From positions 1 to 64,000 of IMG/VR virus record IMGVR_UViG_3300023184_000030: DNA of 64,000 nucleotides; one strand, given 5' to 3'. Numbering within the stretch: position 1 is the stretch's first letter; every line of letters starts with the position of its first letter. Of the stretch, positions 8,253-21,598 are shown piece by piece. A program made the position numbers and the translations under genes. The notes beneath the pieces were generated by a model. It was not told where the DNA came from, searched no databases, and was given only the letters and a program-made list of their open reading frames with translations. The stretch is from a virus.

Positions 8253-10604
8253 TTATTTAGTCCATCCCACGGACTCTATCGAATCCATTACCTGCTTGGC
8301 AGATATTCTTTTAGTGCATTCAAATTGTCTAGATGTTCCTTTATGTTCAGGACACCAGAACCAATCTCCTGGGTCAAATGGGAATTTTTCGGGCGAGTTA
8401 AAACAAGAGTTACAAACGTCTTCTCTATGGATTCTAAGACAATCCTCGTCAAACTCGTTATCTTTTTTAGTTACCCCTGATATCACAACCACCTTTTTAC
8501 CCAATGCATGTGCCACCCAAGATAATCCACTTGAAAGACCTACGAAGAATTCGCAATGTTCTATCCAGTGCATCATTTCTGTAAGTTCCATGCCTGTTTT
8601 ATTCATGCAGTTCTTAGGGATCTCGTTCCAATTTCCCTCCGTACCAAAGCTATAATATCGATCTATGCAAACCGGGGTTAGCCCCTTCTTAGTAAGCATG
8701 TCGCATAATTTTTCCCAGGAATTGTTATTGTTCCAATGCTTAGCCTGTGCAGTACTGTGGCTGGAAAAGCAAACATATTTCTTATTTAGTGGAGAAGGTT
8801 TGCCCGATGTCTTTAGTTGTGGCCTAACTTTGCCCATATCGGCTAATCCTAGCTGTTTAGCGAAGCCTATTTGTAAAGGTAAGTCATAGATATAGTCACA
8901 GCATATAATGTCTGTATAAGCGCTTAAATCGCCTGGCATTTGTATCAGATTCACGTTGGGATATAGATCTTTGTAGAGAAATCCAAAATTACCAACAACA
9001 TCACATTTAATTCCGTGTCTTTTAGCGTATTCGTCTGCATATGGCATGAACGATATGGTATCGCCCAATGCAGCTGTTTTTAAAATTATAAGTGGATTAT
9101 GGGATTTAACATAATTTGGGCTAAAGTAAGATATTATCTGATCTGTGTTTAGTACTCTATAAAATCCAGACTCGTCATCACCATTATATTTAAAATGCGG
9201 TACATAAATGTCTTCAAGGCATTTTGATTTTTCAGATATTGAAGGAATACACTTAGTCGAAGACACAAAGTCCTTGACAATGTCCTTGATGTCGTTTCTT
9301 CTTATATTACCGTCCTCTATTAACACGTGCTGATCTGTTAGATCCATCTTAATTGTTTTTAGAACTTCTGAGCCATCCTTTATAACAATCTCCCAATCGA
9401 TATACTCGTTCCTATCATCAGGAACAGTTGACCAAGCTCTTCTGCTTTTACCGACATTTAAAAATGATTTAATTGATCCGCTTCTAGCATCTCTGAAAAA
9501 TATAGCCTGGCCTTCTCCTTCCGGATATGAACACTTATAAAAATGCGGGTCTCTTTTAAACCAAGAGTAAAATCCATGATCCTCTCTCTTTTCTATTCTC
9601 TTAGGAATTGACAGATAGTCATTAAGTATAAGATTCTTCTGTGATATCTTACCAAATGATGCATAGTCCATCAGCATTCTCGAAACAACAACCTCCCACG
9701 ATATTAGGCTCCTCTCATCTTTACATTCAAGAACATACTGGGAATACCTTTGGAGAACTTCAGAAACACCATCAACTAGATCTACTGTGTTTGCGGTATC
9801 TATTCTTTTCATTCCTTTTAGATCAGCCTCCATTAAACCAACAACAGGAATACCCATCGCTATACTTTCAGTAACTGTTAGGTTAGGATGTCCTGCTTCA
9901 ATAGCTCCTGGATTTAAAAAGACGTGATGTTTTCTTATTTCAGTAAGCGAATCCTCATAATTCATGTCGTATATCACATTGAGTCTTATGTATGATGCTA
10001 TCACATTGTTCTTCTCGAAAAACTCCTTGTTGTTTTTACTAGGGCATATTATTGTTATAGGTAGATTCAGTACTGCTGCACACTCTATGCCTGGAATAAA
10101 TCCCTTTCTGTCGAATAATGGATCTCCTAAAAGACCATTGTTTGCCATCATGACTAAACTTGGACCTTTTTCAATAAGATCTTTGGATCTATCCTCAAAA
10201 TAATAATCTTCCAGATTAGCTCCGTGGCTAAGATATCTTAATTGTGGTAAAGAACCGAAATAATCAACAAGATATTTAGCATGGACAAATGACAGAACAG
10301 ATCCTTTTATAGCTTCCAGATTTTGTTTGTAAACATCAGAATCCTTTCCTAAATGATGTGCATGGTGATCGTGATGGGAAAAAACGTAAGGAATTCCTCT
10401 CTCTTTTAAAAGTAAAGCTAGATTAGCCATGTGTACATGTACAATGTCCCATTCTCCTAACCTAACATCATCCGTGTAAATTATTTCAACCTCATGACCA
10501 AGACCTCTTAATACCTTTGTGTATTCCCAGATTATTTTTTCTACTGCTCCCCATCCGTTAGGTGGTATAGGAATTACCCCTGGTGTGATTTGTGCTATTC
10601 TCAT
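8253..10604 (-). CDS. Fusion: GT4-type glycosyltransferase + autotransporter heptosyltransferase (BAHT/TibC-like) domain
   Basis: N-terminal IPP.GWGAVEK and EAGHPNLTVTES; C-terminal ALGDTI, STAQAKHWNN, FVGLSSGLSWVAH and Fe-ligand-like CNSC...WCP...C. Confidence 0.85.
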   Translation of the reverse strand: MRIAQITPGVIPIPPNGWGAVEKIIWEYTKVLRGLGHEVEIIYTDDVRLGEWDIVHVHMANLALLLKERGIPYVFSHHDHHAHHLGKDSDVYKQNLEAIKGSVLSFVHAKYLVDYFGSLPQLRYLSHGANLEDYYFEDRSKDLIEKGPSLVMMANNGLLGDPLFDRKGFIPGIECAAVLNLPITIICPSKNNKEFFEKNNVIASYIRLNVIYDMNYEDSLTEIRKHHVFLNPGAIEAGHPNLTVTESIAMGIPVVGLMEADLKGMKRIDTANTVDLVDGVSEVLQRYSQYVLECKDERSLISWEVVVSRMLMDYASFGKISQKNLILNDYLSIPKRIEKREDHGFYSWFKRDPHFYKCSYPEGEGQAIFFRDARSGSIKSFLNVGKSRRAWSTVPDDRNEYIDWEIVIKDGSEVLKTIKMDLTDQHVLIEDGNIRRNDIKDIVKDFVSSTKCIPSISEKSKCLEDIYVPHFKYNGDDESGFYRVLNTDQIISYFSPNYVKSHNPLIILKTAALGDTISFMPYADEYAKRHGIKCDVVGNFGFLYKDLYPNVNLIQMPGDLSAYTDIICCDYIYDLPLQIGFAKQLGLADMGKVRPQLKTSGKPSPLNKKYVCFSSHSTAQAKHWNNNNSWEKLCDMLTKKGLTPVCIDRYYSFGTEGNWNEIPKNCMNKTGMELTEMMHWIEHCEFFVGLSSGLSWVAHALGKKVVVISGVTKKDNEFDEDCLRIHREDVCNSCFNSPEKFPFDPGDWFWCPEHKGTSRQFECTKRISAKQVMDSIESVGWTK

Positions 10605-10607
10605 TTC

Positions 10608-12542
10608 TTAACCTTTTCTTTTTGCAAATATTACTCCGTGATCTGCATTTTTATCAACCTCTTTCTGTATTAATTCATCATAAAGCTTAACCGCAAAATC
10701 AGCGCTAACTAATTTTTCTATTAACATATTGACCCTTCCGTCGTTATTGTCGTGGAATTCTAAAATTATATTTTTAGCTTTAGCTAGAGATGCAATATCA
10801 GTTTTATCAAGCAAATCATATTCAGCACCTTCTATATCAATCTTTAATAGATCAACTGAATCATGATCAGACATCAGAGAGTTTAGTGTTTGTGATTTAA
10901 CCAAAACAGTATTCTCACTTATAGTTTTTGCAATGCTAGAAACTAAAGTGTTCCCTGGATTCACGCTAAGATTAACATCCTCGCCGTCACCAGTCAAAGC
11001 AATCTCACTGAAAATAACATTTGGATTTTCCGAGTGCATCTTTCTGAATTCATTAGCTGCTAAAGGATTTGGTTCTATTGAGATAACTTTTTCGAAACCT
11101 ACATCTAAACAATACTCTGTAAATAATCCAACATTAGCACCAACGTCAATAGCAAGTTTCTTTCCGAATATGCTATCCGTCATAATGTCATATATTCGGT
11201 CAGTGAAGAACTCTTCATAATTTCTAAATATAGGATCTTTTGTATCCAATCTGCAAGTCTTCTTTGTTACGTTTCTAAATCTTATTACTGATTCAGAAAT
11301 CACTTCCTCTCCCTGCTTATATTCAATTAAGAATCCACCAAAATTTGGGTTATTTTGGAAATCATAAATATGGATGGGTACTGGAATTATCCAATAAGAT
11401 CCACCTAAACTAAAGTTTATAGTGCAATGGAATATATTAGAACCGCTGTCCACGTCCTTAACATAAACATCACAATTAAGTTCCTTTATGTTTCTTGAAT
11501 CCCCTATATAAACTATATCAAGTTTATTATCCCAAGGGGAAAATTTGTGGATAAACATATCGCTTTTATTATTCATAACTAATTCTTTTTTAGGGTTTAG
11601 TATTTCTCTTATCTGGTTTGCTATCTCTGTCATATCATCACTTCTAAAAAACTTTAGATTTTTTGATTCCTGATACATGTCAACATATACTGAGAGATTT
11701 CTTAGAAGCAGTGGTGCTTTCCAAGATATTGCTTCTTTGATAACAAGTGGACTTGTTTCTTTATCATTAAATAGAGGTATTGATGGGAATATAACAAGAT
11801 CCGCTGCCTGATAGAATAAATCAACATCATCTCTTTCACCCCATACTTTACAATTGGAAGGAAGATTACTTGTGATAGGATTCCAATACCATTTAAAATT
11901 ATCAGCCATTGTACCGATGAAATGAAATTCAACTTCCGGTAGCAATCTTGCAATCTCTGCGGTTTCTCTTTGATTTTTTCTTGGGGTAAATATGCCTATC
12001 TGGATTATGTGTTTCTTATTAGGATCCAATCCAAGTTTTGCCCGGCTATCTAAATAATCTCTTACTGGTTTCTTAGCTATCTCGTGTTCAATAACTTCAA
12101 TTGGTACTTTAAGATCTCTTAATAAGTTAACCTGCCAAGGGCTAACAACAACAAATTTATCAGGGAGATATATTTTTTCTTTAGGAGAAACAGACGAATC
12201 GTGCATGGTCTCGAATATTTTATATTCTCTGTCGTCAGAGAATATAATATCCAGAAGATGGTGGCTTAAGAATTGCTCACATGGTTCTTCGAAATGTATA
12301 ATATCAGGCTTCATCTCCTTGATTGCCTTAATGAGAATATCCTCCGGTTTTTCGCCCCAGGTTATTATTCTCTCCGCACCAAGTATGGATTCTATTCTTT
12401 TCCTGATTGTATTATAGGAAACTTCGTGTCTTTTCTCAAAAACCCAAACTTCCGCTTCGTCTTTGATTTTGTCTATTTTATTCTTTAAATATTCCGGCAT
12501 TCCTCCGGTAGACAGGTAAGGTACAATATAAAAAACTCTCAA
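10608..12542 (-). CDS. Fusion: GT4-type glycosyltransferase + FkbM-family methyltransferase
   Basis: STGGMPEYL, RKNQ, ETSPLVIKEA; C-terminal IDVGANVG, IEPN, LKIDIEGAE, LEFH. Confidence 0.88.
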   Translation of the reverse strand: MRVFYIVPYLSTGGMPEYLKNKIDKIKDEAEVWVFEKRHEVSYNTIRKRIESILGAERIITWGEKPEDILIKAIKEMKPDIIHFEEPCEQFLSHHLLDIIFSDDREYKIFETMHDSSVSPKEKIYLPDKFVVVSPWQVNLLRDLKVPIEVIEHEIAKKPVRDYLDSRAKLGLDPNKKHIIQIGIFTPRKNQRETAEIARLLPEVEFHFIGTMADNFKWYWNPITSNLPSNCKVWGERDDVDLFYQAADLVIFPSIPLFNDKETSPLVIKEAISWKAPLLLRNLSVYVDMYQESKNLKFFRSDDMTEIANQIREILNPKKELVMNNKSDMFIHKFSPWDNKLDIVYIGDSRNIKELNCDVYVKDVDSGSNIFHCTINFSLGGSYWIIPVPIHIYDFQNNPNFGGFLIEYKQGEEVISESVIRFRNVTKKTCRLDTKDPIFRNYEEFFTDRIYDIMTDSIFGKKLAIDVGANVGLFTEYCLDVGFEKVISIEPNPLAANEFRKMHSENPNVIFSEIALTGDGEDVNLSVNPGNTLVSSIAKTISENTVLVKSQTLNSLMSDHDSVDLLKIDIEGAEYDLLDKTDIASLAKAKNIILEFHDNNDGRVNMLIEKLVSADFAVKLYDELIQKEVDKNADHGVIFAKRKG

Positions 12543-12595
12543 TGTTTTGTATTTATAGGTTCTACTGTAAAAGTCAAATAAAATTTCGGGTAAAA

Positions 12596-12618
12596 GTATT
12601 GAAGGGGTGCCTTTGTAC
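12596..12618. repeat. Left arm of 23-nt inverted repeat flanking CDS 12624-13463
   Basis: GTATTGAAGGGGTGCCTTTGTAC pairs with 13541-13563 (22 matches, one bulge per arm). Confidence 0.9.
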
Positions 12619-12623
12619 GAAAT

Positions 12624-13463
12624 TTATTGATCTAGAGATTCGCCACAGTTAGGGCAAAATTTCCATGTTTTTTTCTTGGATCTTGTTCCACATCCTGTAC
12701 AATAATCTCTAATCTCAGTAACCTCTACAGGTTTAACTGATCTTGGAAGAATTTGATACTCTGACGTGTAACTACAATACCAGGAGTAACTACCTGAATC
12801 TTTTCCGAAGTCCTGATCAGATTTTTCACCTTTTTCTACTCTACCGGTTTCAAGCGAACCCGCACCTGAGCAGTTAACTACTCCAGATAAACCAGTAGTA
12901 GTGTAACCAATCGAACTACCGCTTAACGTTGAAGTGTTTGAAGTGTTGGTGAAGTAAACATTAGGTGTAGTATTTACCGTGGTTCCTCCGAAAATAATTG
13001 GATTTACTGTTCCCGGATTGTTCGTCCAAGTTAGGTGATTTGTGTGATAAGGAACATAGGTTGTTCCAGTTGAAAGTGTGCTCCAACTGTAATTTGTGTG
13101 TTCCGGATAGAACTCAACCTTTACCTTACCGTTGTTTTTGATTGCCTCTTTAACCTCATCTGTAGCATCAACATCGTAAGTCGAAAATAAGAATTTCTTC
13201 TTCTCATCGATGAAACGATCCAAGAAGTATCTTTGTCCAGGTCTAAGTACTAAACCCGAGCTACTGATCACCTTGTCGTTGAGATAGATTTTAGCTAAAT
13301 AGGATGTTGATGTTGGATTATAGAGTTCGATTTGAAACTCTTGTCCATTGTCTAGATAAACTAGATCATCCTTTGCGCCGTAGATTTTTTGTCTGTTGTT
13401 GGATACGGCTACCCAAGCTTGTGGTTTTGGAGTACTGTGTACTCCGATTGTGTTGTTTTTCAT
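12624..13463 (-). CDS. Hypothetical protein: beta-rich N-domain, Thr/Ser/Gly linker, C-terminal zinc ribbon
   Basis: CTGCG...FCPNCG at the C-terminus. Confidence 0.8.
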   Translation of the reverse strand: MKNNTIGVHSTPKPQAWVAVSNNRQKIYGAKDDLVYLDNGQEFQIELYNPTSTSYLAKIYLNDKVISSSGLVLRPGQRYFLDRFIDEKKKFLFSTYDVDATDEVKEAIKNNGKVKVEFYPEHTNYSWSTLSTGTTYVPYHTNHLTWTNNPGTVNPIIFGGTTVNTTPNVYFTNTSNTSTLSGSSIGYTTTGLSGVVNCSGAGSLETGRVEKGEKSDQDFGKDSGSYSWYCSYTSEYQILPRSVKPVEVTEIRDYCTGCGTRSKKKTWKFCPNCGESLDQ

Positions 13464-13485
13464 TTACCTTTTTCTTTTTTTTAAA

Positions 13486-13535
13486 ATCCCATCGCTGCTA
13501 TTGCTAACAACTCTAAGGCCATTTTGACCCGGGAC
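13486..13535 (-). ncRNA. Predicted structured 5' leader (three-way junction)
   Basis: P1 GUCCCG/UGGGAU, P2 GGUCA-AAA-UGGCC, P3 GUUGUUA-GCAA-UAGCAGC; junctions UUAGA and GA. Confidence 0.55.
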
Positions 13536-13540
13536 ACTAA

Positions 13541-13563
13541 GTACGAAAGGCACCCTTCAATAC
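13541..13563. repeat. Right arm of 23-nt inverted repeat
   Basis: GTACGAAAGGCACCCTTCAATAC, reverse complement of 12596-12618 apart from two indels. Confidence 0.9.
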
Positions 13564-13587
13564 ATTCTATATATAATCACTGGTTTA

Positions 13588-14083: not shown

Positions 14084-14365
14084 CTATTTTATTTGACTTT
14101 CCCTGATTTTTACAGTTTCTTCTGTTATTGGTCGGGAATAAAGACTCATTACCTTGGTTCCATTTATATTGGTAAAAGTAATTCTACTTTTCTCGTTTGG
14201 CTTAAGAGTGATGGTAACATCTCCTGGTTCTCCTGAGCTGTCGCTCCATGCAAAAACTACAGGTTTCTCGTCATCGAATTGAAAAACCCATTCGGCATCT
14301 TTGAAATTTTTAATCTCTGCTATAGTAGCTGGAGTTCCTTCTAGTTCTATATTATTATCTTCCAT
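14084..14365 (-). CDS. Hypothetical protein
   Basis: Packed ORF. Confidence 0.6.
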   Translation of the reverse strand: MEDNNIELEGTPATIAEIKNFKDAEWVFQFDDEKPVVFAWSDSSGEPGDVTITLKPNEKSRITFTNINGTKVMSLYSRPITEETVKIRESQIK

Positions 14366-14371
14366 GTTATT

Positions 14372-14950
14372 TTATATAAAGTTTTGACAAAATGTTTTTC
14401 TGTGATGTTTGGATAAACCAATTTCCCTTATTGCTGAGATGTGTTCTGGTGTACCGTAGCCAACATTCTTTTCCCATAGGTAGTGAGAAAATTCTGGGCT
14501 GATAGATTTCATTAGCCTATCTCTATGAACTTTAGCTAGGATAGATGCTGCGGAGATACACGGTACTTTAGAATCACCTTTTATCACGCACTCGTAATCT
14601 ATTCCTTTATGTCCAGGGAATTTATCCCCATCAACATAAAGAAAATCAGGAACTACCTTACAAGAATCAATAGCTCTTTTCATAGCTAAAAATGTTGCTT
14701 GCAAAATATTAATCTGATCTATCTCCTGTGGCGATGCCGCACCTATTCCCCATGCTATTGCATTTTCTTTTATTAGTGCTTCAACCTCTTCTCTTTTCTT
14801 TAGACTTTTTATAGCTTTGCTATCTTTAATTCTAGGATCAAAGAAATCATTTGGCATGATAACTACTGCAGCAACAACAGGACCACTTAAACAGCCTCTA
14901 CCTACTTCGTCTACCCCGGCGATAAAATTATATTTTGATACGTCTAACAT
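14372..14950 (-). CDS. rnhB: Ribonuclease HII
   Basis: AGVDEVGRGCLSGPV, DSK, KGD....ISAASILAKV.RD, GYGT..H; start moved to ATG 14950. Confidence 0.95.
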   Translation of the reverse strand: MLDVSKYNFIAGVDEVGRGCLSGPVVAAVVIMPNDFFDPRIKDSKAIKSLKKREEVEALIKENAIAWGIGAASPQEIDQINILQATFLAMKRAIDSCKVVPDFLYVDGDKFPGHKGIDYECVIKGDSKVPCISAASILAKVHRDRLMKSISPEFSHYLWEKNVGYGTPEHISAIREIGLSKHHRKTFCQNFI

Positions 14951-14951
14951 A

Positions 14952-16508
14952 TTATGGTTTAAGTGTGGTGAATTCACCTTTAATGAAATTGATGTGCTGA
15001 GCTTTACTGTCATGGTGAATTATCACGTGTGACTGAAGCCATCCGCTAGGACCAATGTTATAATTAACCCTTAGCTTAGTTGATGTACCTACTGCAAGTG
15101 CTCCATCCTTTCTACCTGGTGAATGATAGTGACCAACTACAATTTTAGTATTTAGCTTTCTGAACTGTAATAAAGAACCCCTAGATCCGTTTGAACCAAC
15201 ATCACCATGTTGGGCTAATTCCCATCCATTAACTACTAAACTGTCACTTCTTCCCAGAGTTCTATATTTAGGGTATTTAGCGTTTATTAAATAAGGTATA
15301 ACCCCGTTTGGCGCAGCACCTTTAAGTAGTAATGCACTGTATTCCATATACTCAATGGAATTTTTCATGGTTGAAGCTTTTCTCCAATCTGTTCCTTTTA
15401 GCCATCTGTCTAAGAAGTCATCATGGTTACTTCTAACTATTATAACATTATAATCTTCGAAACTTTTTAATCCATCGAGCATCGCATCGACTTCACCTCT
15501 CAAAGAATTAGTTCCGTCTAATTCTCTTTGATATTGGATAAAAGGGTCTTTTGATTCGTGGTGGTTAATAGAAAGCCCATCAAAGACATCATGCAGAACT
15601 ACGTGATCTGGTTTTAGATTCTTAAATAGATCAAGTGTTTTTGAAATGACCCTTTCGTCATGCTGTCCGTAGTGGATATCACCTAATACAGCAGCTGCAA
15701 TTGAATCAATCTTAGAAACTTTGCCTTCCTCAACTTTATAATATAGATCACAGAAATCTCCATCATCGGTAGCTGTAACTTGTCTGGCAAAAAATGTATT
15801 CGCATCTTTTATCTCCACAACAACAAAACCTAATGTGTGGTGGAATTCCCCCTTCTTTCCTGATTTTGAATCTGTGTAGTTTTTAAGAGTACATGCTCCG
15901 GTGGTCATCATCATCTTCGGAAGATTCCCTTCAAGAACTGGGATTGTTTCCATGTGAACTTTTGGTGATCCAAATACGCAGGAATTAATTCCGCTCATAC
16001 CTTGTAATCCTGTCATTGGGTCTACTGCAGTAGGCTGGATCTTAACATCTGACATGATCCACATATGCTTGTGAACCTCGTGGCGATTGGCATCAAGATA
16101 TATTGCTATTCTATTTGACCATTCGTCGTAACTTTTGTCGGAAAAAACTGAAGTTGGATTTTTATATCTTCCTGCAATGACGTGGATGTCTGCAGCTATC
16201 TCTTTTGCATAAGCCTCAATATTTACTATAAAATCCTCGTGAACTGGTGTATCGTTCTGAGCCCAAGTAATTATAAACCTTTTCTTCTTCTTATCGAATT
16301 TTTTTTCCTTGGCCCTTATGTACTGGGGTGATTCCGTTAGTGCTTTTTCTGTTATACCTAATTTGGAAATCCAGTTTTGGATAGTCCTTTCTGATTTTCC
16401 GATGAGATCACTTAGACTTTTCATTCTCTGATCCCATGTCAAATCCCTGTTCCAGTAAATATCCGACATTTTAGATATTTGCTCGTCGTTTAATTCTTCA
16501 AACTTCAT
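14952..16508 (-). CDS. Calcineurin-like metallophosphoesterase with N-terminal HTH (T5 A1-like nuclease candidate)
   Basis: GDIH, HDVFD, SNHD, QHGD, GHYH motifs; N-terminal LSDLIGKSERTIQNW HTH. Confidence 0.7.
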   Translation of the reverse strand: MKFEELNDEQISKMSDIYWNRDLTWDQRMKSLSDLIGKSERTIQNWISKLGITEKALTESPQYIRAKEKKFDKKKKRFIITWAQNDTPVHEDFIVNIEAYAKEIAADIHVIAGRYKNPTSVFSDKSYDEWSNRIAIYLDANRHEVHKHMWIMSDVKIQPTAVDPMTGLQGMSGINSCVFGSPKVHMETIPVLEGNLPKMMMTTGACTLKNYTDSKSGKKGEFHHTLGFVVVEIKDANTFFARQVTATDDGDFCDLYYKVEEGKVSKIDSIAAAVLGDIHYGQHDERVISKTLDLFKNLKPDHVVLHDVFDGLSINHHESKDPFIQYQRELDGTNSLRGEVDAMLDGLKSFEDYNVIIVRSNHDDFLDRWLKGTDWRKASTMKNSIEYMEYSALLLKGAAPNGVIPYLINAKYPKYRTLGRSDSLVVNGWELAQHGDVGSNGSRGSLLQFRKLNTKIVVGHYHSPGRKDGALAVGTSTKLRVNYNIGPSGWLQSHVIIHHDSKAQHINFIKGEFTTLKP

Positions 16509-21130: not shown

Positions 21131-21135
21131 GGGCG

Positions 21136-21598
21136 TGGACCTAGAGAGATTCGAACTCTCGTCTCCTTCAGTTAATACTAAGAATTCATTCACAGGCTTA
21201 GAAAGTTTTTTATAAACTTACAAACTAATCTGGTTTATGACACCAGCAAACATTTTGCTGTCTTTTAGTGACTTACAGCGTCAGTCAGAGAACTTATACT
21301 AACAGCGATCTTAAGGGTATTGATATTATCTCAGGGTTACTGATCATAAGCTCTACTTTTTTGGTACTGTTAACCCTTTTTCCCAACGTCACATTTTTTT
21401 AAACGGAGTAAGTGAGACTCCGGAGGTTATGCAGCGTAAGCGTACTCAACCTCAGCTACAGGTGCACCAAACATGTTGATAACGTCCCAAACTGATTTTT
21501 TGCCATTTATAGCGTTATATAGGTTATTAAAGTGTTTCCAATACTAACACTGCCTGCATTCAAAGAACTACGCCTGCGGATCAATTCCGGTTAGGCCC
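21136..21598 (-). ncRNA. ssrA: tmRNA (transfer-messenger RNA), about 463 nt, tag GKKSVWDVINMFGAPVAEVEYAYAA
   Basis: 5' GGGCCUA pairs with 3' UAGGUCC-A (G3:U70 Ala identity); T-arm GAGAG-UUCGAAU-CUCUC; AUAAAU-GGC resume context; tag ORF 21504-21427 ending YAA; CCA not encoded. Confidence 0.9.

Follow-up and report, generated by a model that had tools for sequence, protein, structure and literature searches.

Organization of the locus

The window analyzed here is a 64,000-nucleotide stretch of a 172.8-kb viral record that is estimated to be 63% complete. Its G+C content is 35%, and nearly all of its genes are on the minus strand. Two reverse-complementary arms, GTATTGAAGGGGTGCCTTTGTAC on the left (12596-12618) and GTACGAAAGGCACCCTTCAATAC on the right (13541-13563), bracket a single minus-strand ORF of 279 amino acids that ends with a TAA stop codon and has a C-terminal CxxC...CxxC pattern (Table 1). 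The arms match at 22 positions and each has one extra base. The gap between the stop codon and the left arm is 5 nt, and TATATATA lies beyond the right arm at 13568-13575. A sequence-only reading of this stretch had described two inverted 23-nt arms with one bulge each around one CDS, the 5-nt gap, and the TATATA box, and all of these were confirmed.

The window and the 172.8-kb record each contain only this one arm pair, and a search of both for further arm copies found none. As a bare inverted repeat it is unexceptional in a genome-wide scan for such repeats, and 22 of 40 Markov-2 shuffles of the genome contained a repeat that equaled or beat it within 3 kb. Taken by itself this count would allow a functionless chance repeat, but that explanation is refuted by the conservation, covariation, and fixed geometry found over about 60 loci (see below), and we give it practically no weight. 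The gene between the arms ranks first of 171 for the duplex energy between 5' flank and 3' flank (−34.5 kcal/mol; genome mean −15.1, sd 5.0). Thus, the repeat is significant because of its placement and conservation, not because of the repeat score itself. The pairing of the two arms, here called P0, was present in the MFE and centroid folds of the full 978-nt transcript, together with a three-way junction that lies between the upstream arm and the gene.

Table 1. Features of the end-paired gene and its flanks in the window
Feature	Position	Strand	Basis or remarks
CDS, 279 aa	12624..13463	−	Ig-like beta-sandwich, insert, and C-terminal zinc ribbon (predicted)
Upstream arm (putative P0 5' strand)	13541..13563	−	mRNA GUAUUGAAGGGUGCCUUUCGUAC; covaries with the 3' arm; 3' end adjoins leader P1
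Downstream arm (putative P0 3' strand)	12596..12618	−	mRNA GUACAAAGGCACCCCUUCAAUAC; begins 6 nt past the stop codon
Three-way-junction leader	13481..13540	−	MFE fold, RNAalifold, covariation
Leader P1	13531-13540 with 13481-13490	−	MFE fold
Leader hairpin P2	13516-13530	−	MFE fold
Leader junction UAGA	13512-13515	−	MFE fold
Leader hairpin P3	13494-13511	−	MFE fold
Leader junction GAU	13491-13493	−	MFE fold
A-rich unstructured translation-initiation region before AUG, AAAAAAGAAAAAGGUAA	13464..13480	−	Conserved in alignments; unpaired in folds
Promoter-like box, TTATATATA on the gene strand	13568..13576	−	Recurrent motif; 4 nt upstream of the 5' arm
Example arm sequences from unrelated groups			GGUGCCUUUCGUAC, GCCUUUUCCCGUU, GAAACCUUGUUG, GUAACUGUUCGC, UUUUAGAUGUUCGC, UCUCACUUUGUU, GACCUUGUGGUU, UAUAGCUGAUUA

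The encoded protein and its neighbors

The structure of the 279-aa protein was predicted with AlphaFold from an alignment of 42 sequences (mean pLDDT 72.7). The prediction has a confident beta-sandwich (residues 10-125 plus 203-245), a disordered insert rich in S, T, N, and G (residues 127-200), and a C-terminal zinc ribbon. Searches of Pfam and PHROGs gave weak zinc-ribbon matches only, sequence searches found no named relative, and a profile search against PDB sequences found no match. Foldseek and VIA-align recovered only generic Ig-like sandwiches (best E 0.05; best Z 6.5). We found 1377 homologs, all of them unnamed and all on huge-phage contigs, among which are the Lak megaphages of Prevotella and further huge phages of 460-735 kb. 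The homologs of Prevotella phages Lak-A1, B4, B5, and C1 (L004-L007) have in-frame TAG codons and are open only if TAG is a sense codon; these phages keep a weak version of the leader and lack the 5'/3' pairing.

The gene is co-oriented with its neighbors in all 18 loci for which flanking ORFs were mapped. The upstream neighbor is an ORF of about 150 aa in 14 loci at 59% identity or more, while the downstream neighbor varies. In the window, the minus-strand neighbors at 8253-12542 and 14372-15013 are two large glycosyltransferase fusions (GT1 plus FkbM methyltransferase; GT9/GT4-like) and an RNase HII. The window also encodes a phage tmRNA on the minus strand at 21133-21598 (RF00023, 49.3 bits, above the Rfam gathering score).

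A conserved three-way-junction leader

The region of about 78 nt from the 5' arm to the AUG is more conserved than the protein. RNAalifold predicted 21 pairs in the leader, nine of them with compensatory changes. Among 45 distinct leader sequences, 96.1% of the cells were paired, compared with 65.5% after shuffling and at most 48.5% when the partners were slid, and all 21 pairs covary; these pairing figures are tempered by the alignment, which was fitted to the covariance model. The sequence-only reading had proposed a structured leader, and a covarying three-way junction is what the relatives contain.

The covariance model gave one match per locus, directly 5' of the gene, and this included the distant families (45 bits in L002, 37 bits in L008, and 22-23 bits in Lak-B). 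The 172.8-kb record has one match. Among public viral contigs, the pattern of the leader was found once per contig and only with this gene family. In a metagenome relative (L047:77-752), the leader and the first ~36 codons are duplicated and fused ahead of the upstream acidic protein of about 150 aa, and this contig therefore has two leader copies. Judged by these sequence comparisons, the RNA structure of the leader is real, and it goes with this gene and no other.

No family in Rfam 15 matched the leader even at E ≤ 10, and a literature search on structured RNAs in huge phages found nothing relevant. The order of the helices and a GUC before P2 are similar to those of a type III hammerhead, but the CUGAUGA/GAAA catalytic core is absent, and this identity was rejected. 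Identification as another ribozyme or a riboswitch was likewise dropped, as there was no Rfam match. We regard the leader as a candidate for a new class of cis-regulatory RNA.

The junction of the leader reads U-N-G-A-[G=C P3]-(G/A)-A, and the U-N-G-A is nearly invariant. Kink-turns and k-junctions combine a bulge of 3 nt with tandem sheared G.A pairs at the end of a helix. By sequence, the leader would have three bulged nucleotides and then opposed GA/GA at the foot of a helix within its three-way junction. This is a sequence signature of the motif, and the junction may be a k-junction. The likeness is one of sequence, and about 40% of the leaders have AA instead of GA on the 3' side. Binding of the zinc-ribbon protein to its own leader would be speculation.

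Conservation of the end-to-end pairing across relatives

We gathered 17 loci from viral contigs, 46 from metagenomes, and 8 from GenBank phage records, and the protein identity across them ranged from 87% down to about 33%. The flanks 5' and 3' of the gene pair with each other at about 60 related loci of huge phages, and the geometry is the same throughout. Across families, the 3' strand of P0 begins +1 to +20 nt past the stop codon (2-13 nt in most of them), and the end of the 5' strand is about 76-92 nt upstream of the AUG, at positions −3 to 10 of the leader model. Since P1 begins at position 7, P0 adjoins P1, and the coding region would be a loop closed by P0 and P1. The two helices are likely to stack coaxially.

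The arms and their distances from the gene are the same throughout the window's family (59-87% protein identity). Fourteen arm-family representatives fall into 8 groups with unrelated arm sequences, and all retain the complementarity. The own-pair duplexes of these representatives range from −13.5 to −34.5 kcal/mol; each was beaten by 0 or 1 of 34-40 cross-family pairings and itself beat at least 992 of 1000 dinucleotide shuffles. Several families have no more than 8-14 uninterrupted pairs in P0. Seven clades, including Lak-B, have flank duplexes that cannot be told apart from the controls; they are missing P0 and keep the leader, and P0 is thus dispensable for the gene. A protein phylogeny built with FastTree has P0-bearing members on either side of its midpoint root. 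At least two changes of state are forced by well-supported branches, and five are required by parsimony. Therefore, P0 is either old and has been lost repeatedly, or it has been gained repeatedly.

Within the window's family, 17 complete mRNAs were aligned by MAFFT without regard to structure. In this alignment 94.2% of the P0 cells were paired, compared with 39-48% when the partner was slid by 1-3 columns. Six P0 pairs had changed on both sides, and none of 500 shuffles reached this number. On the mRNA strand, the non-Watson-Crick cells of P0 were 21 G.U and 6 A.C, or 17 and 2 when the misaligned row L049 was left out. This excess fits an RNA helix in the sense transcript and is unexpected for DNA sites. 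A strand test comparing sense and antisense duplex energies was mixed because AU-rich extensions add noise, and the count of alignment cells was clearer.

Together, these comparative data show that the P0 pairing is under selection, that it acts on the strand of the mRNA, and that it is physically joined to the covarying leader RNA. The sequence-only reading had predicted that the arms pair as RNA into a panhandle mRNA and had proposed to check the flanks of homologs for end-to-end complementarity with covariation. The outcome of this check supports the prediction, as the complementarity is kept with covariation and the wobbles fit only the transcribed strand. Its argument that staggered bulges favor an RNA helix is not supported, since the bulges are not conserved.

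A pair of inverted repeats around exactly one gene could instead act at the level of DNA, as sites for the recombination of an invertible segment, as the terminal inverted repeats that bound a mobile cassette, or as operators, possibly for the zinc-ribbon protein. The arms of the window's family are operator-like, each being near-palindromic with an invariant GGTGCC core. We nevertheless find a DNA-level element very unlikely. The orientation of the gene is the same as that of its neighbors in all 18 mapped loci, and the upstream neighbor is the ORF of about 150 aa in the 14 loci at 59% identity or more. No serine or tyrosine recombinase (PF00239, PF00589) was matched in the 172.8-kb record (estimated completeness 63%), and there were no transposon features, as the sequence-only reading had noted for recombinases and transposases nearby. 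The arms have no target-site duplication or direct repeat beside them, and there is a single pair in the genome. Moreover, protein-binding sites would not differ wholly between families and still be complementary, the mismatches on the mRNA strand are G.U and not A.C, and the 5' arm runs straight into an RNA helix that covaries.

Because the arms of the window's family are near-palindromic, each can form a local hairpin (GUAU.GAAGG...CCUUU.GUAC) that would compete with P0. The arms might then be two independent hairpins at the 3' ends of the upstream gene and of this gene, since each sits past a stop codon and folds on itself, and their palindromes would only mimic an inverted repeat. This explanation is highly improbable. 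The asymmetric positions at the ends and in the center are faithfully inverted, and a direct arm-to-arm comparison matches at only 12 of 23 positions. By reading of their sequences, arms elsewhere (for example GUAACUGUUCGC and GAAACCUUGUUG, from other families) lack the palindrome and are still complementary. In addition, the interval from the upstream stop codon to the 5' arm contains a promoter-like box.

Promoter-like box and terminators

The TATATA box noted in the sequence-only reading proved to be a recurrent intergenic promoter-like motif. ATATATA[AG]A has 16 matches on the gene strand of the 172.8-kb record, and 14 of them are intergenic in a genome that is 94% coding and 6% intergenic. 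The motif is mostly 11-31 nt ahead of an ATG; at this gene the distance is 111 nt. Examples of (G)ATATATA[AG]A sites in the window are at 13574, 36335, 42967, 51982, 52871, 57874, and 59432. The recurrence and placement of the motif suggest that it is probably a phage promoter class. The genes behind the box include a helicase and an NTP pyrophosphohydrolase, and we thus gave the box no temporal class.

A TATA-like box also precedes the 5' arm in most related families. Behind the 3' arm, most of the other P0-bearing families have a canonical hairpin-plus-U terminator, and in P0-less families a terminator directly follows the stop codon. By these signals, both arms may lie within one transcript. 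A start about 7 nt past the box would leave the outermost 2-3 pairs of P0 out of the RNA, and more in some relatives (e.g. L077). In the window's own clade no recognizable terminator was found past the 3' arm, so the 3' end is uncertain there, and read-through into the next gene is possible.

RNase III processing stems flank the 16S and 23S rRNAs and the early mRNAs of phage T7, where, as with P0, long-range complementarity brackets a functional RNA amid co-oriented transcription. The sequence-only reading had suggested an RNase III-type processing stem as one possible role for the arms. In such a scheme, a longer polycistronic RNA would be cut by host RNase III at the 22-bp helix and the monocistronic message would be excised. 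The neighbors are all co-oriented, the helix in the window (~22 bp) has about the two turns that RNase III prefers, and no terminator was detected past the 3' arm in its clade. The 5'/3'-UTR pairing of icaR also forms an RNase III substrate (PMC3868564). However, P0 in several families is short for RNase III, and its bulges are not conserved. A promoter-like box right before the 5' arm and, in most families, terminators right after the 3' arm fit a self-contained unit. The rRNA and T7 stems differ from P0 on these same points, as P0 has only 8-14 uninterrupted pairs in many families and its gene appears to have a promoter box to itself, joined by a terminator in most of the other families. The 172.8-kb record has no RNase III gene, though the host would supply one. 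RNase III processing is thus possible for the 22-bp version and a misfit for the families with 8-14 pairs, which speak against it as a general role. As the explanation of the arms it is unlikely.

A probable closed message and possible functions of P0

We consider it very likely that the arms are the two strands of a long-range RNA helix, P0, of about 22 bp in a monocistronic, end-paired ("closed") mRNA. Transcription would be driven by the GATATATA-type box, which is found ahead of many genes of this phage, and the message would probably begin at or just inside the upstream arm. P0 would then tie the first bases of the mRNA to bases starting 6 nt past the stop codon. On its inner side it would adjoin, and probably stack on, P1 of the conserved three-way-junction leader. 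As P0 abuts P1, everything from the ribosome-loading region through the stop codon would form a closed loop.

The double-stranded 5' end and the tethered 3' UTR could shield the leader and both ends from ribonucleases, as in Bacillus subtilis hbs, and the stability or translation of the message would depend on a complete transcript. With the 3' arm beginning only 2-13 nt past the stop codon in most families, a terminating ribosome would melt the inner pairs of P0 in each round, and translation could thereby feed back on the leader. P0 is accessory to the leader, as seven clades including the Prevotella Lak phages have the leader and no P0. By analogy with such messages, its function may be protection (stability) or a coupling to translation.

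A more specific proposal is that P0 and the leader form a prokaryotic "closed-loop" translation device, or that the zinc-ribbon product regulates its own message through a platform of P0, P1, and the k-junction. P0 would keep the stop codon no more than a few tens of nucleotides away from the region where ribosomes load, and terminating ribosomes would be handed back to the same message. With either the device or the autoregulation, each termination would transiently melt P0 and reset the leader. We regard this proposal as doubtful. If it were true, the system would be a phage analog of eukaryotic mRNA circularization or of the 5'-3' long-range interactions of plant RNA viruses.

Comparison with known end-paired mRNAs

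To our knowledge, 5'/3'-UTR pairing has been described in only a handful of bacterial mRNAs (hok, icaR, and hbs), each of them a single case, and few messages of bacteria or phages are known to be closed in this manner. The sequence-only reading knew of no named system with this layout; that statement does not stand, as UTRs at the two ends also pair in the mRNAs of hok (tac/fbi), icaR, and hbs.

In the B. subtilis hbs mRNA, a 5'/3'-UTR interaction of about 14 bp modulates cleavage by RNase Y (Braun, Durand & Condon 2017, PMC5737220). The hbs helix links the two UTRs of one monocistronic mRNA, the 5' one being structured, as P0 would, and hbs is the best functional analog for a protective role of P0. 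The hbs gene is a bacterial chromosomal gene and a single known instance, whereas P0 belongs to a whole phage gene family in which the arm sequences have turned over. Unlike the hbs helix, P0 would use the very first bases of the message and adjoins a three-way junction, and no nuclease is known to be linked to it.

In the hok mRNA, the tac/fbi stem pairs the 5' end with the 3' end and locks the full-length mRNA (PMC9841398), and P0 would close a full-length message in the same manner. After 3' trimming, the 5' element of hok has an alternative partner, ucb, that controls the ribosome-binding site (PMC9841398). A hok-like switch was rejected for P0. The duplex of the 5' arm with the region from −35 to +12 exceeded the cross-family controls in only 2 of the 14 representatives, and the 5' arm thus has no excess complementarity to the initiation region. 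Also unlike hok, the product is a 279-aa Ig-like/zinc-ribbon protein instead of a small toxin, and no antisense RNA is evident at the locus.

In Staphylococcus aureus icaR, the 5'/3'-UTR pairing masks the Shine-Dalgarno sequence, blocks initiation, and creates a substrate for RNase III (PMC3868564). P0 differs in that its 3' arm pairs 78-100 nt upstream of the AUG, and the A-rich initiation region is unpaired in the folds. Of these systems, the present one would work most like hbs. It differs in that the pairing is shared by a whole family in huge phages, would involve the extreme 5' end, runs on into a new three-way-junction leader, and leaves the initiation region free.

The pairing has been kept across a large and deeply diverged gene family of huge phages, with P0 on both sides of the family tree, and the complete turnover of the arm sequences provides unusually clean comparative evidence that end-to-end closure of the message is selected. 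The gene family also supplies natural "compensatory mutants" and natural P0-less controls, such as the Lak phages. The system is therefore well suited to testing how closure of an mRNA affects its stability and its translation in bacteria that do not use a Shine-Dalgarno sequence for initiation.

Other possibly paired flanks in the genome

An outer inverted repeat (12564-12584 and 14086-14116) encloses the zinc-ribbon gene together with the upstream gene of 161 aa. It has 15 perfect pairs plus 9 more, with a 10-nt bulge. This repeat is retained only in near-identical relatives and is gone in L014 and beyond.

Outside the window, a second minus-strand gene of the same record (G000:C1:118350-118910) ranks second of 171 for flank duplex energy, at −32.4 kcal/mol. 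The core of its pairing is GUGGUGUUCCGC, located 15-30 nt before the ATG, with GCGGAAUACUAU, which begins 10 nt past the stop codon. This gene may have another end-paired message, or the pairing may be due to chance.
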